From assembly GCA_021800275.1 (NCBI GenBank), contig JAJYZB010000002.1:70997-134996 (forward strand): a stretch of 64,000 bases of DNA, in the 5' to 3' direction. Numbering within the stretch: position 1 is the stretch's first letter; each line of letters opens with the position of its first letter. The translations under genes were made by a program, and so were the position numbers. This DNA is from a bacterium. Lineage in GTDB: Bacteria > Vulcanimicrobiota > JABDET01. Of this stretch, positions 2,748-46,429 are shown in pieces. The notes under the pieces are model-generated. The model had not been told where the DNA came from and searched no databases. It saw nothing but the letters and a program-made list of their open reading frames with translations.

Positions 2748-2783
2748 AAAGAGGGTTGTATGAAACAGCCCTCTTTCTTTTAT
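2748..2783. terminator. Candidate bidirectional intrinsic terminator between convergent genes
   Basis: 8 bp stem aaagaggg (2748-2755) pairs with ccctcttt (2769-2776), 13 nt loop, followed by a T-rich tract; lies between the HU gene (+) and the 2780-4318 gene (-). Confidence 0.45.
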
Positions 2784-4318: not shown

Positions 4319-4420
4319 TATTTTCTCTTTATAAGATAACACAAAAGTAAAAGCATTTACATTAACAAAACGTTAAATGTAGTTCATTAAAATAACAGAA
4401 GAAACATTGCGCTCAAGGAA

Positions 4421-9528: not shown

Positions 9529-10201
9529 GAACAAGTCCTCTGTCAGGCATGCCAATGCTATCCTGCACAGGTCCGGGTTTACCCTTTTCGAACTTTTGAC
9601 TGCTGCTGTGATTTCTGCTTTTATGACAGGAATTGTTCTTTTAATTTACACTGCCTTAAGAAATGCTTACTGGCAGGGAACAAACGTGATAGGAGCTCAG
9701 GAAGGTGCAAAAATCGCGATGATGCAGATTAAAGAAGTTCTAGGAAATGCCTGTCCTCCCAGCCCTATTCAAGATGCTCTTGTATCCCCTTCCATTGGAG
9801 GAAACAGTTCAGAAGTGGAATTTTGGGAACCCTGCGGCGGGCTCAGTCACCCTTTGAATCCAAACAGCCCTCTTTATACCCAATGCAGTCGAGAACTTCA
9901 GAATGCCGGCGTCAAACTGAAAGGGGGAGGATTGTTTTTTAATCCTCAAAACCCTTTCTATACAGAGATGGTTTTATCGCTCTTAAAAAATCAAGTTGTC
10001 TTATACAACGTGCAGGAAAATTTAACGCTTTACCAGCCTGAACAAACTGCGAACTTTATTACTAATGTCAATTTTGACAGACTTGAAGAAAACGCATTAG
10101 AAGTGACCATTACAAAACAAGAGGTGAGCAAAAATGCAGCAGGACAGAATAAAATTATTACCTCTCAGGCAGAGCAAATCATCTTCTTTCCACAAAAGTA
10201 A
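9494..10201 (+). CDS. Prepilin-type pseudopilin (GspJ/PilW-like), unusually long leader
   Basis: 'GFTLFELLTAAVISAFMTGIVLL' prepilin motif; ATG at 9494 with GGAG 10 nt upstream; start uncertain (ORF track opens at 9443). Confidence 0.6.
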   Translation: MFLLSPIKGSRKNKSSVRHANAILHRSGFTLFELLTAAVISAFMTGIVLLIYTALRNAYWQGTNVIGAQEGAKIAMMQIKEVLGNACPPSPIQDALVSPSIGGNSSEVEFWEPCGGLSHPLNPNSPLYTQCSRELQNAGVKLKGGGLFFNPQNPFYTEMVLSLLKNQVVLYNVQENLTLYQPEQTANFITNVNFDRLEENALEVTITKQEVSKNAAGQNKIITSQAEQIIFFPQK

Positions 10202-12581: not shown

Positions 12582-12685
12582 TTATTCCAATCCTTGATTC
12601 AAATCGAATCAGATATCATCTGATCACGACAAACACTTTTAGATATGAAAAGCAGCATGGCATCACAGGGAACTGTTCCCAACCA

Positions 12686-14086: not shown

Positions 14087-14503
14087 TTAGCCCGTTTTAA
14101 GAGTAGGCTCAAGTTCCGGATTAATGGCTTTCATGAGTTGATTGAGCTTTTCGATAGTAGGAATACTTCTACCCTGCTCGTAGCGCGCGTATGCATTCGG
14201 AGATTTTGAATCAAGCCTGTGCGCCATCTCCAGCAAGGTCAGATTGTGCGCTTCCCTCTGCCGTTTCAACATCAGGGCGAATAGTGTCCCTTCCTGGTTG
14301 GCGCCAATTGTAAAGCTCGACCCTGCAGATGGCCGCACGTCCACCTTAAAATCTTTTCTGCCGATCAAGACTTTAATTGCATCGGCAATCATCCAGTACG
14401 CGCTCTTTTTTGATGTGGCTTGTGTCATGATGTCTAGCAGTGGAACTTCGATCAACCAATAGCCGCTTCTTCTGTCTTTCCAAACACGTCCTTCAAATCT
14501 CAT
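14087..14503 (-). CDS. hicB: HicB-family antitoxin with C-terminal XRE-type helix-turn-helix
   Basis: N-terminal 'SGYWLIEVPLLDIMTQATSKKSAYWMIADAIKVLI' HicB fold signature; C-terminal 'LTLLEMAHRLDSKSPNAYARYEQGRSIPTIEKLNQLMKAI' HTH; GGGAGA RBS. Confidence 0.75.
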   Translation of the reverse strand: MRFEGRVWKDRRSGYWLIEVPLLDIMTQATSKKSAYWMIADAIKVLIGRKDFKVDVRPSAGSSFTIGANQEGTLFALMLKRQREAHNLTLLEMAHRLDSKSPNAYARYEQGRSIPTIEKLNQLMKAINPELEPTLKTG

Positions 14504-14714
14504 ATTTTTCTCCCTTCACTCCTGGATGTGCCTGGGCTTTTCGAAGGATTTTTCGGGCCAAGGGCTCGGCAATCTCCCTGTGTCGAGGAACAGGCTCTGT
14601 TTCTTTTCCGTTCGTCCATATTTCGTGATTCCCGCCTTCTCACGACAACCACCATCCGAAGGAGCTCAAGCAGCTTTCCAGGTCACGCTTCTTCACTAAA
14701 ATAATTTTACACAT
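14493..14714 (-). pseudogene. hicA: HicA mRNA-interferase toxin gene interrupted by an in-frame TGA at codon 25
   Basis: Minus-strand translation 'MCKIILVKKRDLESCLSSFGWWLS*EGGNHEIWTNGKETEPVPRHREIAEPLARKILRKAQAHPGVKGEKYEI'; the stop is plus 14640-14642 (tca); the 3' end overlaps the hicB start by 11 nt. Confidence 0.65.
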
Positions 14715-14726
14715 AAATGTGTAAAA
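14705..14726. promoter_or_regulatory. Perfect 10 bp inverted repeat (TTTTACACAT-AA-ATGTGTAAAA) overlapping the hicA start codon; candidate HicB operator
   Basis: Read directly from sequence; the right half-site contains the hicA ATG. Confidence 0.4.
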
Positions 14727-14850
14727 AGTTAAGAGTCCGAATCGAGTCATATATAATCTTACCACGGAGAGCATTATCGCGTCATAAATTTTCCCCTTTA
14801 TGTCAATGGAAGCAGCCAGGTGTATAGGCGTTTACCATTCGTTAACCCAT

Positions 14851-15336
14851 CTAAATCTCTCTAAAAAGTTTCTTCACTCCCACTATAAGAACACCCACTT
14901 TCCTCTCCCATACCTCTACTTCATAAGATTGAAACACGTTTTTTTCTGCAGGAGCTGTCCACTTCTTATCTTTCTCAAAAGGATACTCTGTGTTTCTCTT
15001 AGTCCATTTATCAGATGGAGCAGTTTGTTCCATTTCAAACAAAAACTTTTTCATTTCCTTAGAAAATAAGCGAGAAATACTGCCGCGAAGTTTTGGTGAA
15101 GATTCTGCTGCCCTTAAAATGCCTTGTATAAAACCTTTGAGAGCATGTGATGGCTTTATTTCTCCTACTGCCTTCAAAAAAAGAGCTTTGACAGCTTTTT
15201 CGCTAGCCTGCTGACAGTGAGCAGCTCGATAGCAAAGAGGAGTCAAAGGAAGACTATTTTTAATCTCAGCGACAAACTGATAATCGAATTCAGCCTGTTT
15301 TAAGAAAGCGCTGCTTTTCTCGCTGCGGCTGTTCAT
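14851..15336 (-). CDS. HEPN-domain protein
   Basis: 'CYRAAHCQQASEKAVKALFLKAVGEIKPSHALKGF' matches the HEPN core (QQAxEKAxKA...H). Confidence 0.6.
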   Translation of the reverse strand: MNSRSEKSSAFLKQAEFDYQFVAEIKNSLPLTPLCYRAAHCQQASEKAVKALFLKAVGEIKPSHALKGFIQGILRAAESSPKLRGSISRLFSKEMKKFLFEMEQTAPSDKWTKRNTEYPFEKDKKWTAPAEKNVFQSYEVEVWERKVGVLIVGVKKLFREI

Positions 15337-15718
15337 CTTTATAAAGTCTAGAAATTAAATTTTTACACTCAGGATCTTGATATAAAATTTCAAACTGATC
15401 GCTTCTAATTTCCCTGATGATACTCCACTTTTCTTCCAGTGAACGATCAAAATCTTGCTTTGAGAGTAAAGAGAGTTTAAGCAGACCATGAAGAACTATA
15501 AAATCACTGGAGGAACCAAATGAAACATGATAAATTTCTTTTTCATTTGCGACGTTTGGAAACTGATCAAGCACTTCAAGCAAATAAACATTCTTTTTAT
15601 CATGAATTTTGTACCAGACAGCAGCAAGAAGGGGGCTGTCATCCAATCTTTTATGTCTCCTTATTAATTTCTTTAAATGCGTTTTTTGAAAATTATAAAA
15701 CGCGTTGTCATCTTGCAT
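15290..15718 (-). CDS. Hypothetical protein immediately upstream of and overlapping the HEPN gene (possible cognate partner)
   Basis: 142 aa, ATG start 21 nt after the upstream gene's stop; 47 nt overlap with the HEPN ORF; 'VSFGSSSDFIVL' only loosely resembles a nucleotidyltransferase motif. Confidence 0.35.
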   Translation of the reverse strand: MQDDNAFYNFQKTHLKKLIRRHKRLDDSPLLAAVWYKIHDKKNVYLLEVLDQFPNVANEKEIYHVSFGSSSDFIVLHGLLKLSLLSKQDFDRSLEEKWSIIREIRSDQFEILYQDPECKNLISRLYKDEQPQREKQRFLKTG

Positions 15719-27708: not shown

Positions 27709-28131
27709 GTGAAAATGCAACCAAAGAAAAAAGTAAAAAAGGGTCCTCTTTTGTTAAAAGCCGTCAAAAAGAGACCAGGGCAAAAGTCAGATCCTGAGAG
27801 TTCTGCCTCAAATTTTACAAAGAACGATTTATTTGGGATAAAAGACTGCCTCGGAATCTCTGATAAAGAACTAGCTCAAATCCTTTTAATTGAGCCTGAA
27901 GTCTTAACAGAACCTGATTTTAAAAACATTCCTATTTCCAGAATCGCTGATCTGCAGAAGGTCGTCAGCAGGGCTGTCGAAATCTTTACTTTAAAAGGAA
28001 TGAGTGAGTGGTTTCATCAACCCCATCCTGAACTCGAGGATCAGTCCCCTCTGGAAGTTTTGAGAGCGCCAGAAGGGGATCAAAAAATTCTGCAGCTTCT
28101 TGCAGCAATTGAATGGGGGGTACCTGTATGA
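27709..28131 (+). CDS. Xre-like antitoxin with DUF2384 (MbcA/ParS-type) toxin-binding domain
   Basis: C-terminal 'WFHQPHPELEDQSPLEVLRAPEGDQKILQLLAAIEWGV' matches the DUF2384 signature; stop overlaps the downstream RES gene start. Confidence 0.65.
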   Translation: MKMQPKKKVKKGPLLLKAVKKRPGQKSDPESSASNFTKNDLFGIKDCLGISDKELAQILLIEPEVLTEPDFKNIPISRIADLQKVVSRAVEIFTLKGMSEWFHQPHPELEDQSPLEVLRAPEGDQKILQLLAAIEWGVPV

Positions 28132-28703
28132 ATATTTTAATGCAGGAAGGAACATTTTACCGAATTGTCATAGGCTGCCGCAGAAAAGAGATTCATAAGC
28201 CTGCCGAGAACTTAATTTTCGGAGGACGATTTACCCCCCCAGAACTTTCCAATACTCTTTATTTAAGCTCTTCTGTTCAAGGATGTCTGGAAGAAATTCG
28301 ATTTAGAATCGGAGGGGATCTAAGAAAAGTTAAACCTCTTGTTTTAGGAACTTTTCAGACGCGATTTTCAAAAATATTAGATTTAACAGATGAAGCTGTT
28401 GTTAAAGTTTTTTTAGGAGATAATCACAGTAAAATTTTTTCCTCAAACTCTGCAAATTACGAGACAACACACCGTCTTGCAGCAGCAGCTGTAAAACGCG
28501 GTTTTGAAGGAATTTTGTATCATTCTGCTGTTTCTCCAGAACATAAAAATCTGGCTGTTTTTTTAGACAATCTGGGTCCAAATTCGTTTATTAAGAAGAT
28601 TTCTATAGATAAAGTGAATATCGGGTGTCAGCCTTTGTCTGGCCGCAGCGCCTGCAGCAGATCTTCAGAATCGGTCTGGCAGAAGGTTTATCAGGTTATT
28701 TAA
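28128..28703 (+). CDS. RES-domain toxin (MbcT/ParT-like NAD+-targeting family)
   Basis: 'GGRFTPPELSNTLYLSSSVQGCLEEI' and 'GILYHSAVSP' carry the R, E and S positions; ATG at 28128 overlaps the antitoxin stop (ATGA). Confidence 0.7.
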   Translation: MNILMQEGTFYRIVIGCRRKEIHKPAENLIFGGRFTPPELSNTLYLSSSVQGCLEEIRFRIGGDLRKVKPLVLGTFQTRFSKILDLTDEAVVKVFLGDNHSKIFSSNSANYETTHRLAAAAVKRGFEGILYHSAVSPEHKNLAVFLDNLGPNSFIKKISIDKVNIGCQPLSGRSACSRSSESVWQKVYQVI

Positions 28704-33418: not shown

Positions 33419-34054
33419 TTAGCCATCATCTGTGCCGCCGCCAGGCAGACCAGCGCTCATCATCATCGTGTGCAGACCTCCTGGCTGTGATTGACCAGGC
33501 AGTGGATAATTGATAAAACCAGGGGGCTGCGGGTTTTCCCAGAAAGGGGGATTCGAGTAACTGAATTCATTGACCTGATCATAAGGATTCTGACCCCATG
33601 GATCTCCATATCCGCCATATCCGCCGCATCCGCCAGGAGCCTCTCTCTGAAAATCAGTTGTTGTTTCGTTCTGGCGTCCGCCAAATCCGATATTATCCTG
33701 CTGAACCTGCATATTGCCATTCTGATCAAGAGTATAAGAAGTTGTGCTGGGGCCAGTTCCAAAATCGTTCGGAGGGGCAGGAGTCGTTATCTGAACACAT
33801 TGATCCCCATTTTGATTAATCCAAACATTATAATTATTCCCATTCGCAGAATAGGTCGTATGCTGTATTCCATTTTGATCCGTATAAGTATTGGTATCGT
33901 ACTGACCATTAAACGCATTTTGTGTTGCCTGATCAATGATCCCTAAATTCTGGTTGTACTGCTGATCCTGTGAATTAAACGGCATGACCGGCGATACCCA
34001 GGAAGTTGGACTCATCTCCTGCAGCAAATTATTCAAGCCTCCGATTCCACCCAT
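33419..34054 (-). CDS. Q/N/G/T-rich low-complexity protein beginning 'MGGIGG'
   Basis: AAGGAGG 8 nt before the ATG; 211 aa dominated by Q, N, G, T, with a 'GGCGGYGGYGDPWG' segment. Confidence 0.5.
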   Translation of the reverse strand: MGGIGGLNNLLQEMSPTSWVSPVMPFNSQDQQYNQNLGIIDQATQNAFNGQYDTNTYTDQNGIQHTTYSANGNNYNVWINQNGDQCVQITTPAPPNDFGTGPSTTSYTLDQNGNMQVQQDNIGFGGRQNETTTDFQREAPGGCGGYGGYGDPWGQNPYDQVNEFSYSNPPFWENPQPPGFINYPLPGQSQPGGLHTMMMSAGLPGGGTDDG

Positions 34055-34356
34055 TTTTTTACCTCCTTAAAAGAGCTTTGCTGTTTTTTATATCAATTCA
34101 CTAACTCTTTTTTTTGATTTTCTTTAATTATAATCCATTTCAGCCCTTATTTCTTGCATTCTTGTGTAGAAAATGTTAAAATTTTGTTAAAATGAACCTT
34201 GGACTCAATCATCTGTGTTTAGCGCTATTCCCAGCAGAGGTGAAATGAACAGGAGAACGGAGCTGCAAATCCATTTTTGTAAATTTACCATACTTGTTCT
34301 ATAAATTTGCCGTCCTTTAGTAAGGAAAACGAGAAAATAGATAGAAAAATCTCTCT

Positions 34357-36627
34357 ATGGCAAAAATTCTGCTGGTTGAAGATGATGTCCATATTTTGAA
34401 AACTCTAGAGAAGATCCTAAAAGAGCGAGGATTTGAAGTTGTCACTGCTGCCAATGGCTTGGAAGCTATCGAATTAGCGCAGAAAGAAGAACTCTCAATG
34501 GTCATTACCGATGTAAGAATGCCTGGAATGGATGGGATTGAAGCCCTTGGAAAAATAAAAACTTATCAACCTGATGCCAGAAAATTAATTATCACAGGTT
34601 ATGCGGGAGATGATGCTCCAATTAGAGCTATTCATCTTTCTGTGGACGACTATTTAATGAAACCATTTTCCCCCGAAAAGTTTTTGCAAAGTGTTGAAAC
34701 AGCGATTCTGAAATATCAATCTGAAGCGCAAAAAACTGAGGCTGCAATTTTCTCTTCCAGCCTACAGCAAAGTCTTAGAACTCTTGTGCAGGAGATTGAA
34801 ACAAGAATTCCAAATGGAACTGAGCGTTCCCGAAGGATCTCTGAATTGGGAACAAAGCTTGGTCAAATAGCAAAACTTGAAAAAAATCAAACTGAAATCC
34901 TGCTTTTTCTTTTATCTTTCCATGATCTCGGCTATTTATCTTATTCAGATCAAGAACTGGAAAATTTACTTTCCATCAAACATGCCGAATGTCTGGGAAA
35001 AATTTTCAAAGGGATGCCCGGTGGTGAACAAATCGCGCTCCTTTACTTGAATCACCATATGCCTTTTGAAGAATCAGATGAAAATTTTTCTATCCTGCCT
35101 CATCTCCTTTTCCTCAGCGAGTCTTTCGAAAACTTAATCTCTACAGGGCTCAGCTCAAAAGAAGCTCTGCAGACCCTGTTAAAAGATGCGGGAAAACTTT
35201 GGGAGCCTTCTCTCCTCGAGATGCTTGAGGATGCTTTGTTCAATCCTCTGCAGAGATTTTCTGAAAAACCCTCCTCAAAAATTTATGAAATACTCCTGCA
35301 TCTCGGAAAAACTTATACTTCTATCGGAGAAATTGAAACAGGAAAAGCGGCCATCCAAAAACTTTTAGAAAAAGAACACGAGATAGATGATCCAGATTTT
35401 AAGTTCAGGCTTCATCTCGCCTTGGCGCAGAACTTAATTCGAGATCAGAAATTCTTGGAAGGGGAGGAAGAAGCCTGCAGAACCCTTGAAACCGCTCTGA
35501 CTTTAAATCTCAGCCCACTCATGATCTCATCGGTTCTTCTGGAAATTGTTCTAGCAAGACTGTTTCTGGAAAAGACCGATAAACTGGAAGAATTCCTTGA
35601 AAAGGGAAAAAGCCATTTTGAAAAATTCAGCGATAAACGGAATTTAGCTCGAACCGAGCTCTATTTTTCCATTCTTGCCGGGATCCTCAAAAAAAGTGAT
35701 CACGCCAAAAGTCATTTCGAAGTCTGCAGAAAGATTGTGGAAGAAGAAAAACTTGAAGACTTCTGGGAATCCGAATTCTCAGCCTTGAAACTTATGAAAA
35801 CACGCTCGGATTCTGATCAGGTCTTCAATTCGAACATTCCTGAAGAAAAAGGACTTAAAATTTACTCTCTTGGACCCGTTCGGATTTATCGAGATGGAAC
35901 TATGATTTCAGAAGAGGCATGGAAAAGCAAAAAAGGAAAAATTCTCTTAAATTATCTTCTGCTGAACATGGAACGGCCTGTTTCAGAAGATAAATTATGC
36001 GATCTATTCTGGCCTCAAGGGGATCCAGAAAGATCCAGAAAAAATCTCCATCATGTCATCTATCTTTTAAGAAGAATTCTTGAACCAGACTTAAAAGATG
36101 GGGCTGATTCGCAGTATATTCTTTCACAACACAATGCCTATCAATTTAATAAATCATCAACCTACTGGTGGGACGTCCATGAGTTTAAAGAAAATATCCA
36201 GAAAGCCCAGTCTTTCTGCAGTTCGAAACAGCACGAAAAAGGGATTGAAACCATACGAAAATTAGAGAATCTTTATGGAGGGGATCTTCTAGAAGATTAT
36301 CTGGAAGAAACCTGGTGCAATTTTGAGCGAGATAGATTAAAGGAACCATTCTTAAATTTGCTTTTAGCCGCTTCATCCTATTATGAACAAAAACAAGACG
36401 ACGTGATGGCTTTAGAATTTGCCCAAAAAACCCTATCCCTGGAGCCATTCCGTGAAAAAACGGCTCAACTGGTCATCCATCTCTTATATAAAAGCGGGAA
36501 AAGAACAGAAGCAGTCAGAAAATATCAAATTTGGTGTTCCCAATTAGAAAAAGAGTTAAATTTAAAGCCCTCACCTGAATTCGCTGCGCTTTATGAAAAA
36601 ATGGTGATTGGCAGCACCTCTTATTGA
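34357..36627 (+). CDS. Multidomain regulator: REC receiver, degenerate HD-GYP-like domain, OmpR-type winged helix and BTAD (SARP-like) domain
   Basis: REC 'ILLVEDD...MVITDVRMPGMDG'; middle 'LSFHDLGY...NHHMPFEE' (HD-GYP-like without the GYP signature); 'IYSLGPVRIYRDGTMISEEAWKSKKGKILLNYLL' wHTH followed by a helical BTAD-like tail. Confidence 0.6.
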   Translation: MAKILLVEDDVHILKTLEKILKERGFEVVTAANGLEAIELAQKEELSMVITDVRMPGMDGIEALGKIKTYQPDARKLIITGYAGDDAPIRAIHLSVDDYLMKPFSPEKFLQSVETAILKYQSEAQKTEAAIFSSSLQQSLRTLVQEIETRIPNGTERSRRISELGTKLGQIAKLEKNQTEILLFLLSFHDLGYLSYSDQELENLLSIKHAECLGKIFKGMPGGEQIALLYLNHHMPFEESDENFSILPHLLFLSESFENLISTGLSSKEALQTLLKDAGKLWEPSLLEMLEDALFNPLQRFSEKPSSKIYEILLHLGKTYTSIGEIETGKAAIQKLLEKEHEIDDPDFKFRLHLALAQNLIRDQKFLEGEEEACRTLETALTLNLSPLMISSVLLEIVLARLFLEKTDKLEEFLEKGKSHFEKFSDKRNLARTELYFSILAGILKKSDHAKSHFEVCRKIVEEEKLEDFWESEFSALKLMKTRSDSDQVFNSNIPEEKGLKIYSLGPVRIYRDGTMISEEAWKSKKGKILLNYLLLNMERPVSEDKLCDLFWPQGDPERSRKNLHHVIYLLRRILEPDLKDGADSQYILSQHNAYQFNKSSTYWWDVHEFKENIQKAQSFCSSKQHEKGIETIRKLENLYGGDLLEDYLEETWCNFERDRLKEPFLNLLLAASSYYEQKQDDVMALEFAQKTLSLEPFREKTAQLVIHLLYKSGKRTEAVRKYQIWCSQLEKELNLKPSPEFAALYEKMVIGSTSY

Positions 36628-36637
36628 TTGGCATAAA

Positions 36638-38533
36638 TTAAAGCTGATCTAAAGCTCTATCAATCACAGACGCTTTTTCGAGAGAAGGCTTTATATTTTC
36701 TACTGCTGGGATTTTTAAAACAAACTGACTCCCCTCCCCCTTCTTGCTTTTCACCTGAATTTCCCCACCCATTGATTTGATAATTCCAAAACTGACTGAC
36801 AATCCTAACCCTGTCCCTTTTCCGATCTCTTTTGTCGTGAAAAACGGATCAAAAATTTTAGAAAGATTCTCTTCTGAGATTCCGCAGCCATTATCCGAAA
36901 TGCGCAAAATACTTTCTCGAGAATCTCCAAAAATATTGATCTCAATCACACCTGGGTTTTCTTTTTTTTCAAAAATCGCGTCTCTGGCATTTGATATTAA
37001 ATTCGCAAGAACCTGTATTAAATTATCAGGAACTCCATACACAGGCAGGCAGTCTTGAAAATCCGCTTTAACTTGAATATTATCCAGAGTTAACTGCTTA
37101 TCCCATAAATTCAAAGCCGCTGCAGCAGCCTCCTCAAGCTTGAAATTCTTTTTTTCATCAGCAGATTTTCTGGAAAAATTTAAAAGTTTTTGAACGATTC
37201 CCTGACATCTCTGAGAAGCTTGAAGAATGGTTTCAACAGCATCTTTATCCTCAGGTTTCTGCTGCAGCTGCCAGGCATTCAACACAATGGCTCCAAGGGG
37301 ATTATTAATTTCGTGCGCAACTCCTGCGGCCAGCTGCCCAACAGCAGCCAGTTTACTAGTTTCAATCAGCTGCGCCTGCATTTTTTTTAAATGATCGTTC
37401 GCCTGCAGGACTTCCTGATACAAAAAACTATTATTGACAGATGAAGAAATCTGACCCGCTAAAATCGTCAGAAATTTCTCCTGCTCTTCTCCAATGAAAG
37501 GGCGGCTGAGAAGCAGATATCCCAGGATTTCTCTTTCTGTTCTGAGAGGAATGACAGCTAGGGGAAGAAGGGCTTTAGGAAAAAGATGAGTGGGATGTTT
37601 GATGACACTCGTCAATTCGCCTTTTTCATTTAGAAAATCATTCTCCATCAAAGTCTCGGGCAGAGGGCTTCTCTCAAACTCCCCACAAGAATTTTTTTTA
37701 CAAAAAGAATCTTTCTCTTTTAAATAGATACTCACTCCAGAGGCTTTCAGTTTTTCCATAAGACCCATTAAAATCTCAGGAGCCATCTTCTGAAAATCCA
37801 AAGCCGCGGACAATTTTTTAGAAAGTTCGTAAATAATTTGCAGCTTTTCTTTTTCAACGTAAGATTTAAATCCAAATTTAAAAACAAAAAAAGCCACAAA
37901 AAATGAAACTGGGATAAAAAGAAAAAGGGGAGTTGAAAGGGAATGCTTTGCAATCGGAACAAAAGGCGCTAAAAGATAAAAAGGCAGTTCGAAAGCATAT
38001 CCGGCGCCAATCTCTTTTAATGAGAACTTCTCTTGAAATCTTCCAGCTTGAAAGACAAATGTCGTAAAATCGGTAAGAAGATGAAAAATAACAGCTGCTG
38101 CCAAAGGAAAAAATAAAGCATCTGAAAAGTTAAAAAAGTTTATTTTGCCCCCAATCTGTCCATAAAATAGAGAGGTCAGTCCTGTTGTGAAAGTATATCT
38201 GCTCACATTTGAAAAAATGGTATCAAAATTTATGCGGCCTTTTCTAACGAAGAAAAAAATAAGGAAGCCAAAGAAAACGGGTAGAACAGTTTGATTTCCC
38301 CATAATAAAATATAACAAAAAATCAGCGGATTTTCAAATCCAAAAGTAATGCTTGACCAGGGAAGTCGAACATACGTAAAAAGGGCGAGAACCAGAAATA
38401 CAGCTCCTAAAACAGTCTCTGTCCAATGGCTGAAAGGATGGCGCAAAAAAGCGCGCGCTAAAAATAAAATTGACACAATAGAGATAAGAATCTCAACAGC
38501 TAAGAATTTAAATCTCTTCTTATTAATGCTCAA
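36638..38533 (-). CDS. Membrane sensor histidine kinase (multi-TM N-terminus, HisKA plus HATPase_c)
   Basis: 'AAGVAHEINNPLGAI' H-box; 'ISDNGCGISEENLSKIFDPFFTTK' and 'GTGLGLSVS' ATPase motifs. Confidence 0.8.
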   Translation of the reverse strand: MSINKKRFKFLAVEILISIVSILFLARAFLRHPFSHWTETVLGAVFLVLALFTYVRLPWSSITFGFENPLIFCYILLWGNQTVLPVFFGFLIFFFVRKGRINFDTIFSNVSRYTFTTGLTSLFYGQIGGKINFFNFSDALFFPLAAAVIFHLLTDFTTFVFQAGRFQEKFSLKEIGAGYAFELPFYLLAPFVPIAKHSLSTPLFLFIPVSFFVAFFVFKFGFKSYVEKEKLQIIYELSKKLSAALDFQKMAPEILMGLMEKLKASGVSIYLKEKDSFCKKNSCGEFERSPLPETLMENDFLNEKGELTSVIKHPTHLFPKALLPLAVIPLRTEREILGYLLLSRPFIGEEQEKFLTILAGQISSSVNNSFLYQEVLQANDHLKKMQAQLIETSKLAAVGQLAAGVAHEINNPLGAIVLNAWQLQQKPEDKDAVETILQASQRCQGIVQKLLNFSRKSADEKKNFKLEEAAAAALNLWDKQLTLDNIQVKADFQDCLPVYGVPDNLIQVLANLISNARDAIFEKKENPGVIEINIFGDSRESILRISDNGCGISEENLSKIFDPFFTTKEIGKGTGLGLSVSFGIIKSMGGEIQVKSKKGEGSQFVLKIPAVENIKPSLEKASVIDRALDQL

Positions 38534-38539
38534 TGTGGA

Positions 38540-39082
38540 TTAATGATCCACCCGCGGACCTAAAATTGGACCCACTGCACTACACATATTATCCATTAAA
38601 TTTTCCGGATTTTCCCAATTGAAATCTTCTTCAACTTTTTTTCTTCCCAGATCGTAGCTCCTAATTGTATTGTAAATGGAAGGCTGTGAAGAAAAATTCT
38701 GAGGATCGATCCATGGACCCTGAATTGGACCCTGGCTGTCAAATCCTGATGAAATTCCACCTGTCCCGAAGAAAGAACTCCATGGAGAACCAAGCCCTGA
38801 AAGAAATCCAGGAGAGTATAAAGGCGAAGAATACGGACTGCCGTAAAATGAATTCAACCAGTTTCCTGACCACGGGCTTTCACAAAACTGTTCACAAGGA
38901 GGGCAGCTGCAGAACCCGGAATCAGACCCCAAAGCATTCTCCCAGGAAGACTTAAATTGAAGTTGGGGATACGAGGATGAACAAGGATTAAAAGAAGGAC
39001 TTGCCGGACAGCTGCATGCTACTTCCGATGGAGCAGAAAAATCAAAAAACTGATTTCCCGAAAAAATCTCTCCTATGCTCAT
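38540..39082 (-). CDS. S/P/G/C-rich low-complexity hypothetical protein
   Basis: 180 aa ORF; TTTACA-N16-TATAAT promoter-like sequence and a GGGGG RBS upstream. Confidence 0.4.
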   Translation of the reverse strand: MSIGEIFSGNQFFDFSAPSEVACSCPASPSFNPCSSSYPQLQFKSSWENALGSDSGFCSCPPCEQFCESPWSGNWLNSFYGSPYSSPLYSPGFLSGLGSPWSSFFGTGGISSGFDSQGPIQGPWIDPQNFSSQPSIYNTIRSYDLGRKKVEEDFNWENPENLMDNMCSAVGPILGPRVDH

Positions 39083-40172: not shown

Positions 40173-40354
40173 GTCAGGGATCGTTCTTGTCCTCTATTGT
40201 TTCTCCTTTTCTTCTTTTTTCTTCATTTTCCACAGATTTTTGACATCGCATTATATTTATGTCAGATTATTGTCTTGAACTTAAAATTTTAAAAAAAATG
40301 AAGATTGACTATTTCACAATTGTCGTGATATTAAAAACAAGAACCTCAACAAGA

Positions 40355-40384
40355 TTTACAAAATGTTAAACTTCTTGTCATAAC
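40355..40384 (+). promoter_or_regulatory. Sigma70-like promoter (TTTACA-N18-CATAAC) with a conserved AAAATGTTAAACTT spacer motif
   Basis: About 50 nt upstream of the 40436 gene; 24 of 31 positions are shared with the 43123-43153 element. Confidence 0.4.
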
Positions 40385-40435
40385 TTAGCAGCAAGAAAGT
40401 GTTATGATAAGGGGAACAGCAGGAGGGTGAGAATT

Positions 40436-41716
40436 ATGGGCGGCATTAGCGTAGCATTAGGAAACATAGAAAAATCTGCAGTTAATTCAGTTGATAATAT
40501 TGGAAATACGCTTGGACATGATCTCGGCATAAACAAACCAGCGACTCCACCACCCCAGACACAAACTCCTGATGTTCAAACACAGACACAAGCTCAGGGT
40601 GGAACTCAGCCCCAAACTCAGGATAAAACCTCAATCTTATCCCAAGCAAAATCCACTCTCACAAACTTTGGTCATTCTGTGGCAGGGGCTTTAGGAGTCG
40701 GTAAAACCAGCGCAGGCGCTGTGGCGACTGCTGCAGTCACAGGAGGTGCAGTGGCAGGACCCCTTGGAGCTGCTGCAGCAGGTGGAGTAACGGCAGCAGT
40801 TGTGGGTGGAGCAAGTCTTGCAGCTAATCAGGAAAACAAACAAGGGGCAGATGCTAGCGCAGGCTCAATTCTTAAAGATAATCTTGTCAGTGGAGTAACA
40901 GGAATTGGCCAGGATCTAGGACTGCTTCAAAATTCTCCTCTCACAAAGACAGGTTATCCTCCAATTTATGGAGGAACTCAAGCACAGGCGAATCAAATCT
41001 GGGGATACATGGACGGAAAACCTCCTATGCCTCTTGCTGACAGGCAAGCCGTTCATTCCATCCATGTGGGATCCAATTACACAACAGGAGCTTTTCAAAC
41101 TGTGGCTAAAGGAGCGAATGGACAAGACCAGAATTTCGGAGATATTTATCTCAATACAAATGATTTAAAAAATCAAGGGCAGTATGTTGTTCTTCATGAA
41201 TCAGGACATGCGGTAGAAATACACAATGGAACCTTACAGGGTCCGACAGCGAGTGTCTGGAATGGACCAGATATCTACGGCACAGCTGCAGCTGATTCTC
41301 AAGCAGGGGAAGCGAATAATCCAGCAGCAGAAACTTTTGCTGATGCTTATGCAGCATATTACAGTGGAAATGGAGCTGCTCTGCAGAAAGTTGCTCCCCA
41401 GGAATATAATGCCATTGCATCAGGAGCTTACAAAGCCCAGGGACCTTCAACTGTTACTACAGGAGATCAAGTGATGAGTGGACTCACTAATTTTGGAGAG
41501 GCAGTCTCCTCTGGAATTGGGTGGTTAGGAAACACAATTGGAGGAGCTGTTGGAGCAGGGTTAGCCGCTGCGGGGAATGGCTTTCTAGCGAATACCGGAT
41601 TTGGAGCCAATGCTTTTGCAGGATCAGCTGCTCCTGTTTTGCAAGGAATAGGAGCTGGCAATCTGGCGGATAATTCTGCTGGCGGCGGACCGAGGGTTCC
41701 AGTCTGGGGTGGGTAA
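40436..41716 (+). CDS. HExxH zinc-metallopeptidase-like protein with anthrax-lethal-factor-like (ATLF / M34-like) catalytic core and Gly/Ala-rich flanks
   Basis: 'VVLHESGHAVE' followed ~40 aa later by 'AAETFADAYAAYY' (HExxH plus E-x-F-A-E/D-A-F/Y); AGGAGG 9 nt before the ATG at 40436 (ORF track opens at the GTG at 40427). Confidence 0.5.
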   Translation: MGGISVALGNIEKSAVNSVDNIGNTLGHDLGINKPATPPPQTQTPDVQTQTQAQGGTQPQTQDKTSILSQAKSTLTNFGHSVAGALGVGKTSAGAVATAAVTGGAVAGPLGAAAAGGVTAAVVGGASLAANQENKQGADASAGSILKDNLVSGVTGIGQDLGLLQNSPLTKTGYPPIYGGTQAQANQIWGYMDGKPPMPLADRQAVHSIHVGSNYTTGAFQTVAKGANGQDQNFGDIYLNTNDLKNQGQYVVLHESGHAVEIHNGTLQGPTASVWNGPDIYGTAAADSQAGEANNPAAETFADAYAAYYSGNGAALQKVAPQEYNAIASGAYKAQGPSTVTTGDQVMSGLTNFGEAVSSGIGWLGNTIGGAVGAGLAAAGNGFLANTGFGANAFAGSAAPVLQGIGAGNLADNSAGGGPRVPVWGG

Positions 41717-41727
41717 GAATATGCAGA

Positions 41728-43089
41728 ATGTTTGTGTCTAAAAATAAAAATTATTCTTTACAGGTTTATCTAGGATTTTTAAATTTAACAGCATTTTTTT
41801 GTTTATTTTTCTCATTGCACAAAAACTCTTTTGATATCAGCGAAGTCTTACTAGGATTCTGGGTTCTCCTTTTCTTTTTTGCGAATATGCTTTCAACAAA
41901 AGTTTTTATAAAAAATTTCGAAATGTACTTAAATGTTTCTTCTGCCATCAGCACAGCGAGTTATTTTCTATTCGGTTTAACCCCTTGCCTTTTAGTCATT
42001 ATCTTCGGATTTTCAAGTTTTTTTCTATGGAAGCGATGGCATTTTTATAAGTGGGCAGGAACAGTCTCATTTTGGGTGATCAGTTATTCGATTGATAGTT
42101 TTTTTATTTCTCTAATTCAAACCCCTTTTTCTTATCCATGGATTATCGTAAAGGTGATTGTTTTTCAAGCGATTTTTATTCTACTTGGAACCCTTCTTGC
42201 TGATCTTCTCATCAGTTTTGGGCAAAAAATTTCATTAAAAACACTTTTACTTTCAGAAACAAAAGAAGTTTTGTCAGGAAATCTCATGGAAACTTTCATT
42301 TATTCCATGCTTGCCTGCATCCTGATGTCTCTCTGGCTCCACACCCCCTGGGCAGTCTCCCTTCTTTTCATTCCATTTTACGGATTAAAACTCGTGATGG
42401 AAAGCGGACAGAAAATTCAAGCTGAACTGGCAAAAGCCATGAATGCCTTAAATGACATTTTAGAGGCAAAAGATGAATACACTGAACGGCATACAGATCG
42501 AGTGGCTAAATATGCAGTGATCATTGCTAAACATTATGGAGGGTTCTCTGATGAACAATTAGACCTGATCGCCAAAGTGGGGAAGATTCATGATGTCGGA
42601 AAAGTGATGGTCAGAGATGATGTATTGAAAAAACCAGGAAAATTAACTCCTGAAGAATATGAACACATCAAACTTCATGTCCAGAAAGATTTTGTCACAA
42701 ATACAATCCCTCCTGAATATCCGCTTGCCAAATGGCTGCAGCTTGCCAGACTGCATCATGAACGATATGATGGCAAAGGATATCCGTTTGGATTAAAAGG
42801 AGAAGAAATTCCGATAGAACTCAGAATTATCTCTGTGGCTGATGCCTGGGATGCCATGACCACCCGCAGGGTTTATCGGGCAAGTCTCGCAAATGACACC
42901 GCTCTGCAAACTCTTAAAGAGGGGGCTGGAACTCAATGGGATCCAACCGTTATCAACGCTTTCTTCAAAGCTTATGATTCAGGACAAATTCAAGCGCTTC
43001 AAGCTGAACACAAAGCAAAGCTGCAAAAGCAGAAATGGGATGCCCTTCAAAAACTAGACCAGTATCTGTCTCTTGAAAGCAGTCTTTAA
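41728..43089 (+). CDS. Membrane-anchored HD-GYP phosphohydrolase, paralogue 1
   Basis: Multi-TM N-terminus; 'KIHDVGKV' and 'HHERYDGKGYP' HD-GYP motifs; starts 11 nt after the metallopeptidase-like gene. Confidence 0.8.
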   Translation: MFVSKNKNYSLQVYLGFLNLTAFFCLFFSLHKNSFDISEVLLGFWVLLFFFANMLSTKVFIKNFEMYLNVSSAISTASYFLFGLTPCLLVIIFGFSSFFLWKRWHFYKWAGTVSFWVISYSIDSFFISLIQTPFSYPWIIVKVIVFQAIFILLGTLLADLLISFGQKISLKTLLLSETKEVLSGNLMETFIYSMLACILMSLWLHTPWAVSLLFIPFYGLKLVMESGQKIQAELAKAMNALNDILEAKDEYTERHTDRVAKYAVIIAKHYGGFSDEQLDLIAKVGKIHDVGKVMVRDDVLKKPGKLTPEEYEHIKLHVQKDFVTNTIPPEYPLAKWLQLARLHHERYDGKGYPFGLKGEEIPIELRIISVADAWDAMTTRRVYRASLANDTALQTLKEGAGTQWDPTVINAFFKAYDSGQIQALQAEHKAKLQKQKWDALQKLDQYLSLESSL

Positions 43090-43098
43090 CCCAGAGCC
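42331..43098 (+). repeat. Direct repeat copy 1 (3' part of HD-GYP paralogue 1)
   Basis: Aligns base for base with 44108-44875 at a constant 1777 bp offset; the 3' portion is nearly identical by eye. Confidence 0.8.
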
Positions 43099-43123
43099 AT
43101 AGGCTTAAGACCGGAGACCAAAA

Positions 43124-43153
43124 TTTACAAAACGTTAATCTTTCCATCATAAT
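43124..43153 (+). promoter_or_regulatory. Sigma70-like promoter (TTTACA-N18-CATAAT) with a conserved AAAACGTTAATCTT spacer motif
   Basis: About 50 nt upstream of the 43204 gene; near-duplicate of the 40355-40384 element. Confidence 0.4.
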
Positions 43154-43203: not shown

Positions 43204-43488
43204 ATGAATGTAGCCTTGATTCGTTCTCACAACACAGGAAGCATTGTTTCAGGCAGCACAGGAACAGCCGCAGCAAAAGCTCTTAATACTGCTCCCCCAC
43301 ATGTCAACTCTCAAGTCCGAGACACAGCTTCAATTTCGTCCCCAACAGTGGATGCTTTTGCAAAATTCCACAATTCCATAAAAGGAGCATTAGACGGCAC
43401 CAGTGGAAGTAAAGAGAAGAATTCTCCAAAATTTCATCATAAAAACCACGGCAAAATCACAATAGGGATTGGAAACCCACATCCTTAA
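43204..43488 (+). CDS. Small S/T/G-rich hypothetical protein
   Basis: 94 aa ORF with AGGAGG 8 nt upstream of the ATG; its stop lies inside the apparent start region of HD-GYP paralogue 2. Confidence 0.45.
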   Translation: MNVALIRSHNTGSIVSGSTGTAAAKALNTAPPHVNSQVRDTASISSPTVDAFAKFHNSIKGALDGTSGSKEKNSPKFHHKNHGKITIGIGNPHP

Positions 43489-44866
43489 GGAGTCACAAGA
43501 AAACCTCTTGTCAGAACCTAAGAATCTCTCCTTAAGAATTTTCCGCTGTGCTTCAATTATAATTGGAATTACAGCTTTTCTTTATGGAACTTTTCACTCC
43601 AACGCAGCAGTAAATCTTTTTTCTCTTTTTGTTTGGAGCTTATTTCTTTTTTGCGCCAGTATGCTGGAATGTAAAATCTCAATTAAAAATCTCACTTTCT
43701 ACTTGGATATTTCTAATGCCATTGGAATTGGAGCTTATTTTCTTTTTGGATTAAAATTCTTTCTGCTGGTTCTAGGGTTAGGAAAACTGATGTTTTATCT
43801 ATTGAAAAAATACCCTCTTTATCCCTGGTGGGCTCAAGCCATTACTTTCTGGTGTATTTCTTATGTAATCCCAAGCTTATTTATCCCATACAATTTAGTT
43901 CATCTCACTTTCCCAGAAAAAATACTTCATATTATCCTTTTCTCGGTAATCTCAGGTCTAATTTTAATTCTGCTTATGGATCTTTTAAACGGTTTTCAGG
44001 AGAATATCTCTCTAAAAGAAATGCTCATGATCGAAATAAAAGAAGGGCTATTTATAGATTTTATCCAGATCTTCATTTTTGCCATGCTTTCCTTTGACTT
44101 AATCTTCCTCTGGCTCCACACCCCCTGGGCAGTCCCCCTTCTTTTCATCCCATTTTACGGGTTAAAACTCGTGATGGAGAATGGCCAGAAGATCCAGGCT
44201 GAACTGGCAAAAACCATGAATGCCTTGAATGACATTTTAGAAGCCAAAGATGAAGACACAGAAAAACATACTGAAAGGGTTTCTAAATATGCCGTGATCA
44301 CTGCTAAACATTATGGAGGATTTTCTGATGAGCAATTAGACCTGATCGAAAAAGTGGGAAAACTCCATGATGTCGGAAAAATTTTGGTCAGAGATGACGT
44401 ATTGAAAAAACCAGGCAAATTAACTCCTGAAGAATATGAACACATCAAACTTCATGTCCAGAAAGATTTTGTCACAGATACAATCCCTCCTGAATATCCG
44501 CTTGCCAAATGGCTGCAGCTTGCCCGACTGCATCATGAACGATATGATGGCAAAGGATATCCGTTTGGATTAAAAGGAGAAGAAATTCTGATAGAACTCA
44601 GAATTATTTCAGTGGCTGATGCCTGGGATGCCATGACCACCCGCAGGGTTTATCGGGCAAGCCTCTCAAACGAAACCGCGCTGCAGACTCTAAAGGAAGG
44701 GGCTGGAACTCAATGGGATCCAACCGTTATCAACGCTTTTTTCAAAGCTTATGATTCCGGAGAAATTCAAGCGCTTCAAGCTGAACACAAAGCAAAGCTG
44801 CAAAAGCAGAAATGGGATGCCCTTCAAAAACTAGACCAGTATCTCTCCCTTGAAAGCAGTCTTTAA
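43469..44866 (+). CDS. Membrane-anchored HD-GYP phosphohydrolase, paralogue 2
   Basis: Same motifs as paralogue 1; the N-terminal TM region also aligns; the start at 43469 is a TTG and is uncertain. Confidence 0.8.
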   Translation: METHILKESQENLLSEPKNLSLRIFRCASIIIGITAFLYGTFHSNAAVNLFSLFVWSLFLFCASMLECKISIKNLTFYLDISNAIGIGAYFLFGLKFFLLVLGLGKLMFYLLKKYPLYPWWAQAITFWCISYVIPSLFIPYNLVHLTFPEKILHIILFSVISGLILILLMDLLNGFQENISLKEMLMIEIKEGLFIDFIQIFIFAMLSFDLIFLWLHTPWAVPLLFIPFYGLKLVMENGQKIQAELAKTMNALNDILEAKDEDTEKHTERVSKYAVITAKHYGGFSDEQLDLIEKVGKLHDVGKILVRDDVLKKPGKLTPEEYEHIKLHVQKDFVTDTIPPEYPLAKWLQLARLHHERYDGKGYPFGLKGEEILIELRIISVADAWDAMTTRRVYRASLSNETALQTLKEGAGTQWDPTVINAFFKAYDSGEIQALQAEHKAKLQKQKWDALQKLDQYLSLESSL

Positions 44867-44875
44867 CCCAGAGCC
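44108..44875 (+). repeat. Direct repeat copy 2 (3' part of HD-GYP paralogue 2)
   Basis: See copy 1; both copies end with the same stop context 'TAACCCAGAGCC'. Confidence 0.8.
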
Positions 44876-45037
44876 GCCTCAAAAATATTCTGAGCGCTTT
44901 TTAAACAAAAAGTAAACTTAAAAACGCGAAGTTAATTTTCGGTGAACATTTGCTGACTGCCGTTGACTCTTAAAATTTTGTCGTGTAAAATATAATTAGT
45001 GAAGAGCAGTAAAAAATAAATGGAGAGGAGAAGTGCT

Positions 45038-46429
45038 ATGACATTTACGTTTGATGATGTGTTTGAGAGTCATTTAGATTTCCCCGAAAAATCTCTTTAT
45101 TTTTTCGATCTTTTTTTAGCGGCAACTCTTATTTGCCTTGCTGCCGTTACTCTGCTTTTCCCTTTTCACTTCAACCTGCAAACTTTTCTTTTATGGGGAA
45201 TTTTAGCGTGGGTAGGGCACAGACGCAAATTTTTTCTAAAAATCAAACAAACTTCTTACACCCTGGATCTCGCGCATCCAATTTATCTGGCTGCATTCTT
45301 CCTCCATGGACTTCCTTTTGCTCTCTGGGTTTTCACTGCTTCAGGAGCGATTCAAGTTATTCTCGCAAACAAAGGTATCAGGCGCTTTGGTCTGGAAGTA
45401 GGAACCACTGTTTTAATCTCAACCCTCATCTATTCAATCCCATTTTTCCGTTCACCCATCAATAAAACTAATTTGCCCCAAGCTCTGCTCTTCATCCTGT
45501 TATTTCAGGCTCTTTATGTTCCATTTCATGCCATGATGCTCAGACTTTTTCAAGGAAGACGAACCAATCTCAAATCTTTCGAAAAAAATTCAAAAGAAAC
45601 ATTCGACTTGCTAAATATTAAAGAAATAATAGAGGAATTGGGTTTTCAACCCTTTCTATCCAGTCTGGTCATTCTAATTTCTTTATGGCACGAACTTTTA
45701 ATCCTCTTCTTTTTCTTGTTCGTGTCAGACATAATTTTTTCCCTGGAAGAACAATCCCGCCTTGGGAGAGGACTCGAGCAGACCACCCAAATTTTAAATC
45801 AAGCCCTCTTGACAAAAGATGGAACCACAGAACGCCATACCGAAAGAGTCAGGAGATATGCGGAACTCATTGCCAAAGAAATGAGACTCTCTCCTAAAGA
45901 AATTGAAAAAATTGGCTGGGCTGCTAAACTCCATGACATTGGAAAACTCTTTATTAAAGACGAAGTGTTAAAAAAAGCGTCTAATTTAACACAGAACGAA
46001 TACGAACACATCAAGCTTCACGTAAAACTGGATAACCTTCTGGATCCTTTGTTTAAAATACACAATCCCCTTGCTGAATTCATACACGTGGGGAGACTGC
46101 ACCATGAACGATACGATGGACAAGGATACCCTTTCGGATTAAAAGCGTCAGAAATCCCGCTTGCAGCTCGCATTATTTCTGTTGCTGATGCCTGGGATGC
46201 CATGACTTCCAACCGCCCCTATCGAAAACCCTTTGAGGAAAAACTAGCTCTGAAAATCTTAAAACAGGGGGCAGGGACTCAATGGGATCCTGAAGTTGTT
46301 TTCATCTTTAATCACCTGTATGATTCTCCAGAAATGATGGGCATCAGAAATGAATATCAGGATTGGAAAAAAACCGAAACAAAAAGAACACTGCAGAGAT
46401 TCGCAAGGCTCCTGGCATTTGAGACGTAA
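45038..46429 (+). CDS. Membrane-anchored HD-GYP phosphohydrolase, paralogue 3 (more divergent)
   Basis: 'KLHDIGKL' and 'HHERYDGQGYP'; GAGAGGAG 8 nt before the ATG at 45038 (ORF track opens at 45020). Confidence 0.75.
   Translation: MTFTFDDVFESHLDFPEKSLYFFDLFLAATLICLAAVTLLFPFHFNLQTFLLWGILAWVGHRRKFFLKIKQTSYTLDLAHPIYLAAFFLHGLPFALWVFTASGAIQVILANKGIRRFGLEVGTTVLISTLIYSIPFFRSPINKTNLPQALLFILLFQALYVPFHAMMLRLFQGRRTNLKSFEKNSKETFDLLNIKEIIEELGFQPFLSSLVILISLWHELLILFFFLFVSDIIFSLEEQSRLGRGLEQTTQILNQALLTKDGTTERHTERVRRYAELIAKEMRLSPKEIEKIGWAAKLHDIGKLFIKDEVLKKASNLTQNEYEHIKLHVKLDNLLDPLFKIHNPLAEFIHVGRLHHERYDGQGYPFGLKASEIPLAARIISVADAWDAMTSNRPYRKPFEEKLALKILKQGAGTQWDPEVVFIFNHLYDSPEMMGIRNEYQDWKKTETKRTLQRFARLLAFET

Follow-up and report, generated by a model that had tools for sequence, protein, structure and literature searches.

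Regulators of the OmpR/PhoB/SARP type bind direct repeats with a periodicity of about 11 nt, and the regulon of the repressor BldD includes diguanylate cyclase genes. BldD is a Streptomyces protein that depends on cyclic di-GMP (c-di-GMP); its operator, the 13-bp BldD box 5′-TNAC(N)5GTNA-3′, is bound by a dimer that tetrameric c-di-GMP joins (PMC4151990). Here we describe a control region that occurs twice in a 64,000-nucleotide stretch of bacterial DNA (the window; contig JAJYZB010000002.1 of assembly GCA_021800275.1, positions 70,997 to 134,996; G+C content 41%), each time before an operon that ends in a gene for a membrane HD-GYP protein. Its core is a 15-bp inverted repeat of the form TTTAC-N5-GTTAA, which we call the dyad. 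Positions below are those of the window.

The two operons, or modules, are adjacent paralogs alike in order and orientation, each consisting of a cassette, a small gene and an HD-GYP gene. Module 1 carries the first cassette copy (C1), a gene for a 426-residue protein and HD-GYP1; module 2 carries the second copy (C2), an open reading frame (ORF) of 94 residues and HD-GYP2. Our comparisons indicate that this feature, a duplicated control region with a palindromic, operator-like core before paralogous HD-GYP operons, is real and functional. With a probability of roughly 0.55, the 31-nt blocks at which the two copies were recognized form the core of a single type of cis-regulatory cassette, some 60–85 nt long, which would include σ70-type core promoter elements and, in the dyad, the candidate operator of a dimeric regulator. 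The comparisons show the likeness of the copies, their history of duplication, the selection on them and the enrichment and fixed spacing of the dyad, whereas the binding of a protein, the −10 box in use, the direction of control and the identity of the regulator are inferred.

Two copies of one control region

The 31-mers ATTTACAAAATGTTAAACTTCTTGTCATAAC (C1; 40354–40384, plus strand) and ATTTACAAAACGTTAATCTTTCCATCATAAT (C2; 43123–43153, plus strand) agree at 24 of 31 positions, as a sequence-only reading of the window had reported, and the ungapped match continues in the same register over longer windows (31/45, 39/60 and 46/75). When the 29 intergenic regions of the window were compared pairwise on both strands (about 800 comparisons), the C1/C2 pair had the top score at every window length, with a single tie that occurred at 31 nt only, and none of 1,000 dinucleotide shuffles of both regions reached 24/31 or 39/60. 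These comparisons bear out the earlier impression of a promoter-like cassette whose likeness exceeds chance. The tying pair (24/31; TTCAAATCGAATCAGATATCATCTGATCACG at 12598–12628 and TCCGAATCGAGTCATATATAATCTTACCACG at 14736–14766) may be another shared regulatory site.

The position of the cassette is likewise common to the two modules. Its start lies 81–82 nt before the start codon in both copies, and the 31-mers end 51 nt (ATG at 40436) and 50 nt (ATG at 43204) before it, which agrees with the earlier placement of both blocks about 50 nt upstream of a gene that is itself followed by an HD-GYP gene. A second common block, TGTTATGAT in module 1 and TGTTATACT in module 2, follows in register and precedes an AGGAGG ribosome-binding site.

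Sequences from two related species allowed the age of this likeness to be judged. Species B (loci L005, L085, L088, L089 and L095–L101) is one species, two of its assemblies being 99.5% identical over 15 kb, and shares about 73% identity with the window in coding DNA; species C (loci L086, L087 and L094) is more distant. The genome collection yielded one close relative only, the species B HD-GYP1 locus. Species B and C both carry a homolog of the 426-residue protein and orthologs of HD-GYP1 and HD-GYP3, a third HD-GYP gene of the window, and the region upstream of the first cassette is identical in every species B locus that includes it.

Between the window species and species B, the rate of synonymous substitutions per synonymous site (dS) is 1.0–2.1, which is near saturation. 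Over the 31-mer, C1 agrees with its species B ortholog at 26 positions, C2 agrees with that ortholog at 25 and the two copies agree with each other at 24; the positions common to all three are ATTTACAAA, GTTAA, TT, TCATAA and TGTTAT. A blastn comparison of window positions 31001–52000 with L088 aligned non-coding DNA at three places only: (i) the response-regulator promoter (34115–34193), as a separate alignment, (ii) the DNA from 40285 before the gene for the 426-residue protein, where an alignment begins that runs through that gene and HD-GYP1, and (iii) by our reading, the region before HD-GYP3, inside a longer alignment that extends into HD-GYP3. Within the window the cassette is an island, with no similarity between the modules in the stretches that separate it from the HD-GYP genes. 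Since adjacent synonymous sites are saturated and 26 of 31 positions are kept in species B, the comparison indicates that purifying selection holds the cassette in both copies. That C1 and C2 are not the closest pair argues against a recent conversion of C2 from C1.

Table 1 Positions of promoter-like elements, dyads and genes of the two modules and of further dyads in the window
Feature	Position	Strand	Remarks
Pa, putative promoter	40305–40332	+	TTGACT-16-GATATT; before module 1 only; conserved in the window species, species B and species C
Pb, putative promoter, C1	40355–40360 and 40379–40384	+	TTTACA-18 nt-CATAAC
C1 dyad	40355–40369	+	TTTAC-AAAAT-GTTAA; candidate operator
Hairpin	arms 40371–40384 and 40401–40414	+	14 bp, 16-nt loop; module 1 only; in species B at L088 ~9937–9982 (14–15 bp)
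Pc, putative promoter, C1	40400–40408	+	extended −10-like TGTTATGAT (TGn + TATGAT); just before the ribosome-binding site
Gene for 426-residue protein	40436–41716	+	module 1; G/A/S-rich; HESGH motif; no Pfam family
HD-GYP1	41728–43089	+	module 1; membrane HD-GYP protein, 453 residues; 11 nt after the preceding gene
Gene-conversion tract	42583–43098, common with 44360–44875	+	~89–97% nucleotide identity; ends 9 nt past the stop codon
C2 dyad	43124–43138	+	TTTAC-AAAAC-GTTAA; candidate operator
Pc, putative promoter, C2	43169–43177	+	extended −10-like TGTTATACT (TGnTATACT)
94-residue ORF	43204–43488	+	module 2; overlaps the start of HD-GYP2 by 20 nt
HD-GYP2	43469–44866	+	module 2; 465 residues; paralog of HD-GYP1
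HD-GYP3	45020–46429		more distant HD-GYP gene, without a cassette
Two overlapping dyads	424–449		TTAAC-GATCT-GTTAA and TTAAT-TCTCT-GTAAA; common half-site; 11 nt apart; upstream of glycine-zipper gene 526–882
Perfect dyad	4362–4376		TTAAC-AAAAC-GTTAA; 44 nt before the start of GH76-like gene 2780–4318 (−)
Dyad	14831–14845	+	TTTAC-CATTC-GTTAA; 347-nt intergenic region between toxin–antitoxin-like genes
One-mismatch dyads	7608, 7661		ParA / T2SS-F divergent region
One-mismatch dyad	13917		before a gene for a 395-residue protein
One-mismatch dyad	34176–34190		TTAAA-ATTTT-GTTAA; overlaps the extended −10 of the response-regulator promoter
One-mismatch dyad	44902–44916		TAAAC-AAAAA-GTAAA; upstream of HD-GYP3

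A palindromic core over-represented in non-coding DNA

The left half of the dyad is part of the −35-like hexamer TTTACA of the putative promoter Pb, and its right half lies in the spacer of that promoter. None of the ten half-site bases varies between C1, C2 and species B, in which the intervening five nucleotides read AAAAT, AAAAC and AAATT, respectively; species C lacks the dyad. The dyad came to light through a search with a cassette profile (nhmmer) over 135 kb of related sequence, whose one marginal extra match (412–440, minus strand; E = 0.04) includes a perfect palindrome, TTAAC-AGATC-GTTAA.

We searched for the dyad in 82.8 kb of this genome, that is, the 64-kb window and 18.8 kb of flanks. 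The pattern TTWAC-N5-GTTAA occurs at five places in the window (424, 4362, 14831, 40355 and 43124), all of them non-coding or overlapping a stop codon; exact dyads were not found in the 18.8 kb of flanks. Chance would yield 0.14–0.20 sites over the entire window and 0.03 in its 4.9 kb of non-coding DNA, each region of which was shuffled separately, and none of 3,000 such non-coding shuffles yielded three or more sites. The signal is specific both to the half-site, as 29 of 30 palindromes built by permuting its letters have no match, and to the 5-nt spacer, which gives five matches where every other length from 0 to 12 nt gives none or one.

The form TTTAC-N5-GTTAA, which the versions in C1, C2 and species B set a priori, gave 17 matches with up to one mismatch, against 3.7 ± 1.9 expected (0 of 100 shuffles reached 17), and nine of its 15 distinct positions are non-coding by our classification from ORF coordinates, a class that makes up roughly 8% of the window. 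About 800 kb of unrelated bacterial loci contained one dyad match. At the five orthologous sites of species B, a small sample counted by eye, half-sites are kept at 48 of 50 positions and spacers at 20 of 25. The dyad thus combines the marks of an operator over the 64–83 kb examined: an inverted repeat of fixed spacing, enrichment in non-coding DNA and half-sites that are kept more than spacers.

The sequence-only reading had proposed a small regulon with the common operator AAAAYGTTAA. An operator-like motif is indeed over-represented in non-coding DNA, but the proposed word is not the element itself and covers half of it: this is TT(T/A)AC-N5-GTTAA, in which the run of A is a variable spacer and the left half is the TTTACA that had been assigned to a −35 hexamer. 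Exact AAAAYGTTAA is itself enriched (four in non-coding DNA, 0.09 expected) because of the dyad and of the −10 element of the response-regulator gene. When the cassettes were tested directly for best matches in the DNA upstream of HD-GYP3 and of the response-regulator gene, the scores stayed mostly within chance. A metagenome-wide scan for TTTACAAANNGTTAANNTTNNNNNCATAA returned four unrelated matches from a collection that does not include this organism, and is uninformative on a regulon.

Promoter-like elements of the cassette

Three promoter-like elements overlap or flank the dyad. The C2 version of Pb, TTTACA-18-CATAAT, matches the σ70 consensus at ten of 12 positions and passes a promoter scan, in which the C1 and species B versions are not listed. 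Pc, which starts 16 nt downstream of Pb, is an extended −10-like element that reads TGTTATGAT in C1 and in species B, TGTTATACT in C2 and TGCTAAATT (TGnTAAATT, with a good −35 hexamer, TTGCAA) in species C. All four versions keep TGn + TAnnnT and lie just upstream of the ribosome-binding site; TGTTAT..T occurs upstream of five of 29 genes checked. Pa precedes module 1 only, and the block TTGTCGTGATATTAAAAA (40312–40340) is identical in species B, recognizable in species C as TCGTGATAAAAAT and the longest perfectly conserved non-coding stretch of the region, longer than any run within the 31-mer. Readings of the cassette as a σ28, σ54, extracytoplasmic-function or sporulation σ promoter were rejected by eye against the respective consensus sequences, as spacing or key bases misfit; a direct repeat, TGTYAW, spaced by 12 nt was rejected as inconsistent between the cassette copies.

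These elements raise the question of whether the cassette is a plain duplicated σ70 promoter without an operator, the other dyads of the window being unrelated to it. The good score of Pb in C2, the extended −10 kept in all versions, the possibility of reading TGTTAAAAT at 34174 simply as an extended −10, and the mostly non-significant best-match tests would all fit such a promoter. GTTAA, however, is invariant in three versions although it lies in the spacer, which σ70 promoters leave unconstrained. A promoter would also not account for a dyad found five times, against 0.03–0.2 expected, with one specific half-site and a 5-nt spacer, nor for two sites that are perfect palindromes without a matching −10 box. 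We consider this explanation unlikely.

A conserved hairpin in the putative leader of module 1

Immediately upstream of the ribosome-binding site of the gene for the 426-residue protein, the plus strand of module 1 can form a 14-bp hairpin (Table 1) with a predicted energy of −15.7 kcal/mol (z = −3.3; −15.4 kcal/mol and z = −4.5 in species B) that is weaker on the minus strand. Between the window and species B, its stem shows two compensatory and three wobble-compatible changes and no broken pair. This conservation suggests that some transcripts of module 1 begin upstream of the cassette, probably at Pa.

The cassettes could be an RNA-level element, a 5′-UTR or intercistronic leader acting on stability, processing or translation, whose transcription would start at Pa for module 1 and reach module 2 by read-through. 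Besides the compensated stem, this would agree with the conservation of Pa in three species and with a scan of the window that found no terminator between HD-GYP1 and C2. The hairpin is lost in C2 (z = +0.86), which keeps the dyad and both −10-like boxes, and therefore is not what the cassettes have in common. The palindromic dyad also occurs upstream of −35 elements, at 4362 (before a minus-strand gene) and at 14831 (with no evident target), as fits a DNA site. Rfam gave no match in the window at the gathering score and, around the cassettes, chance-level eukaryotic microRNA and small nucleolar RNA matches only, even at E values up to 10. An RNA-level explanation of what the cassettes share is, on this evidence, very unlikely.

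Evidence weighing against an operator

Several observations weigh against the reading of the dyad as an operator that overlaps a promoter. The ambiguity W in TTWAC was added after the sites at 424 and 4362 had been seen, and about 45 kb of species B sequence contains a single exact dyad. The distance from dyad to promoter varies, from roughly −53 to −89 and once over the −10 box, so that no single mode of action fits all sites. The site at 14831 has no obvious target gene, and that at 4362 is possibly an AT-rich, terminator-like hairpin after the acs gene, which would leave the motif statistics unexplained. As for Pb, the C1 hairpin implies transcription from Pa, which indicates that TTTACA-18-CATAAC is not the sole promoter of module 1, and CATAAC lacks a conserved final T in C1 and in species B. 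In the −10 hexamer of σ70 promoters, the final T is among the two most important bases.

The variable site positions relative to promoters, the AT-rich sites and the half-site arrays at 11-nt spacing in some of them (424–449 and, in the flank, L103 12486–12522) would also be compatible with binding by a nucleoid-associated or architectural protein, or with a non-transcriptional mark such as a recombination or methylation target. The sharp specificity of half-site and spacer and the concentration of sites in promoter-proximal DNA speak for an operator instead, and no flanking repeat or mobile-element signature was found. We give an architectural role or a non-transcriptional mark as slim a chance as the RNA leader.

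Duplication history of the two modules

The products of the three HD-GYP genes match Pfam HD_5 with E values of 4e-28, 1e-26 and 9e-31 and contain an HHERYDGKGYP or HHERYDGQGYP signature, the former in HD-GYP1 and HD-GYP2. With an HD_5/HD domain and the HHExxDGxGYP motif, the genes downstream of the cassettes are, as judged from their sequences, c-di-GMP phosphodiesterases of the HD-GYP type. The N-terminal halves of all three proteins are hydrophobic; HD-GYP1 and HD-GYP2 have about five or six hydrophobic segments each within the first 215 residues or so.

HD-GYP1 and HD-GYP2 share 69% amino-acid identity overall in a mosaic pattern. In their N-terminal membrane halves, synonymous sites have reached saturation (dS ≥ 1.9), whereas dS is 0.13–0.18 from about codon 300 to 9 nt beyond the stop codon. 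The low dS of the C-terminal halves indicates gene conversion. The N-terminal half of HD-GYP1 is 57% identical to its species B ortholog and 38% identical to HD-GYP2, with species C as the outgroup (27–31%). As this half is nearer to the species B ortholog than to HD-GYP2, either the duplication dates back to the split from species B or earlier, or the sensor half of HD-GYP2 evolved fast. Module 2 was not found in species B or species C, and no ortholog of HD-GYP2 was present among 5.8 billion proteins, the closest relative being the HD-GYP1 encoded by the same genome.

Gene conversion of this kind between the modules, which reaches 9 nt past the stop codon, is the one ground for taking the cassettes as a neutral relic, alike through duplication or renewed conversion and devoid of function, and we hold this to be extremely improbable, since the cassettes are islands in DNA that lacks similarity up to the HD-GYP genes, the adjacent HD-GYP 5′ halves are saturated at synonymous sites, C2 is no nearer to C1 than to the species B ortholog and the same positions are kept across species at dS > 1.

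The small genes of the two modules also appear to be related. The 426-residue protein belongs to a family with only four sequence clusters among the 5.8 billion proteins; it has a conserved ESGH core, which reads HESGH in the window and CESGH in the remotest homolog, and Gly/Ala-rich hydrophobic stretches. Its Pfam matches are sub-threshold zincin hints (ATLF, Peptidase_M78 and Peptidase_M91; E = 0.03–0.06), and its structure prediction, with a mean predicted local distance difference test score of 29, is unusable. A profile of four homologs of this protein aligns, at its positions 48–92, with residues 21–65 of the 94-residue ORF in the ORF's own frame; the match is weak (5.5 bits, a score reached by 12 of 2,000 shuffles, p ~0.006) and no similarity between this region and the gene for the 426-residue protein was detected at the DNA level or by BLASTP. 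The pattern common to the ORF and the family is T.PP...S..D..SI.S......F..F.H.S..GAL (F.H.S[VI].GAL). The ORF is probably what remains, after truncation, of a duplicated gene for the 426-residue protein.

The modules differ in length by 992 nt. This difference and the profile match together suggest that the whole unit was duplicated, comprising the control region, the gene for the 426-residue protein and the HD-GYP gene; we have moderate confidence in a tandem duplication of the entire operon followed by loss of most of the second copy of that gene. The earlier description of a near-identical cassette duplicated in front of two modules is accordingly correct as to the two copies, but the cassettes are alike by descent, having been duplicated together with the whole operon, of which the HD-GYP paralogs and the probable 94-residue relic are the other traces.

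A model of regulation

Our model starts from an ancestral operon, consisting of the control region, the gene for the 426-residue protein and a membrane HD-GYP gene, that would have been duplicated in tandem, copying the cassette. A dimeric DNA-binding regulator would bind the dyad TTTAC-N5-GTTAA, which overlaps the −35 hexamer belonging to Pb and is placed some 53 nt ahead of the start predicted for Pc. A regulator bound there would act as a repressor of Pb or an activator of Pc, and both HD-GYP operons would answer to it, with module 1 adding Pa and the leader hairpin. The glycine-zipper gene and the GH76-like gene near further dyads may be under the same regulator; weaker candidate targets are the response-regulator gene, HD-GYP3, a PilZ-like gene and a gene for a Q/N/S-rich protein. 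The set of genes near dyads, which includes the three HD-GYP genes, the PilZ-like gene and several for low-complexity, probably exported proteins, is suggestive of a regulon.

If true, this model would supply a concrete, testable regulatory motif, in the form of a 15-bp dyad present at five or more sites, for genes of c-di-GMP turnover in a lineage known from metagenomes only. It alters no general principle.

Further dyad sites and neighbouring genes

The overlapping dyads at 424–449 lie about 60–70 nt upstream of the TAGACA-17-TAAAAT promoter of the glycine-zipper gene. Species B keeps both dyads; the one half-site that is changed there falls within the last part of the preceding coding region. 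In the flanks, three one-mismatch dyads at 11-nt spacing (L103 12486–12522) precede a gene for a 280-residue Q/N/S-rich protein, and two that lie 30 nt apart (L102 4909–4953) precede the PilZ-like gene.

The words related to the cassette that had been noted at 34171–34194, upstream of a Q/N-rich gene, do exist, but they lie on the plus strand in a promoter that faces the response-regulator gene at 34357 and not the Q/N-rich gene. This promoter, near-ideal for the extended −10 class, consists of TTGCAT (34154–34159), a 17-nt spacer and TGnTAAAAT, the extended −10 being TGTTAAAAT (34174–34182, plus strand), and is the most conserved block of its intergenic region in species B. The response regulator (34357–36627) has an unusual architecture, in which REC is followed by a degenerate, HD-GYP-like region that matches HD_5 weakly (E = 0.007 in species B and 0.16 in the window) and then by TPR, winged-helix and BTAD parts. 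The gene for its histidine kinase (36638–38533, minus strand) adjoins it, and this neighbourhood is kept in species B. DNA-binding proteins encoded in the window include a SARP-like regulator, a LuxR-type regulator and HTH_17 and HTH_3 proteins.

Genes at 27709–28703 and 14087–15718 resemble toxin–antitoxin pairs: an Xre/MbcA-type antitoxin with a RES-domain toxin, and a HEPN-domain protein near a HicB-like helix-turn-helix protein. Small low-complexity proteins are encoded at 33419–34054, 38540–39082 and 520–882; they are Q/N-rich (211 residues), S/P-rich (180 residues) and G/A-rich (118–120 residues) and have no Pfam family or a glycine-zipper match only. Two of the three share the N-terminus MGGI, which is also that of the 426-residue protein. 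These small proteins may form a lineage-specific exported set.

Comparison with known systems

Duplicated promoters and palindromic operators are ordinary in kind. The locus resembles paralogous promoters kept after tandem duplication of an operon with gene conversion in having adjacent paralogs with homogenized 3′ halves and diverged 5′ sensor halves and a control region in both copies; it differs in that the second copy has the 94-residue remnant and lacks Pa and the hairpin. It is a clean, small example in which a control region was kept while sensor domains diverged, catalytic halves were converted and a co-duplicated gene decayed.

As a promoter, the cassette is closest to the extended −10 class of σ70 promoters: TGnTATGAT, TGnTATACT and TGnTAAATT keep TG, A2 and T6 and have a weak −35 hexamer, as is typical of the class. 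Here, however, a second hexamer pair (TTTACA-18-CATAAY) overlaps, and module 1 has a third promoter-like site upstream.

Sites of the OmpR/PhoB/SARP type come to mind since a SARP-like two-component system lies 4–6 kb away, in a position kept in relatives, and some of the promoters with dyads have a poor −35 hexamer. The dyad, in contrast to the direct repeats of that class, is an inverted repeat. By its position, the response regulator at 34357–36627 is a natural suspect.

The BldD box comes nearest to the dyad in form. TWAC-N5-GTTA, which is present in every exact dyad, is a special case of TNAC(N)5GTNA; the dyads thereby fit the BldD consensus, which fixes six bases only and is of low information. 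BldD is known from sporulating actinomycetes, whereas the dyad comes from an unclassified metagenome-assembled genome of 41% G+C, and no ORF of at least 80 residues in the 82.8 kb of this genome carries the c-di-GMP-binding motif RxD-X8-RxxD. We treat the match as a formal fit and a lead from the literature, and do not class the dyad as a BldD box. By analogy, TTWAC-N5-GTWAA might be the operator of a c-di-GMP-responsive factor that follows a BldD-like logic outside the actinomycetes, with feedback on the three HD-GYP genes, the PilZ-like gene and genes for secreted low-complexity proteins and with the REC/degenerate HD-GYP/winged-helix/BTAD regulator in the circuit; this bolder extension is quite unlikely. 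The two systems share a pseudo-palindromic geometry, in which AC...GT cores flank a spacer of 5 nt, and a c-di-GMP theme that is represented here by the three HD-GYP genes and the PilZ-like gene nearby.

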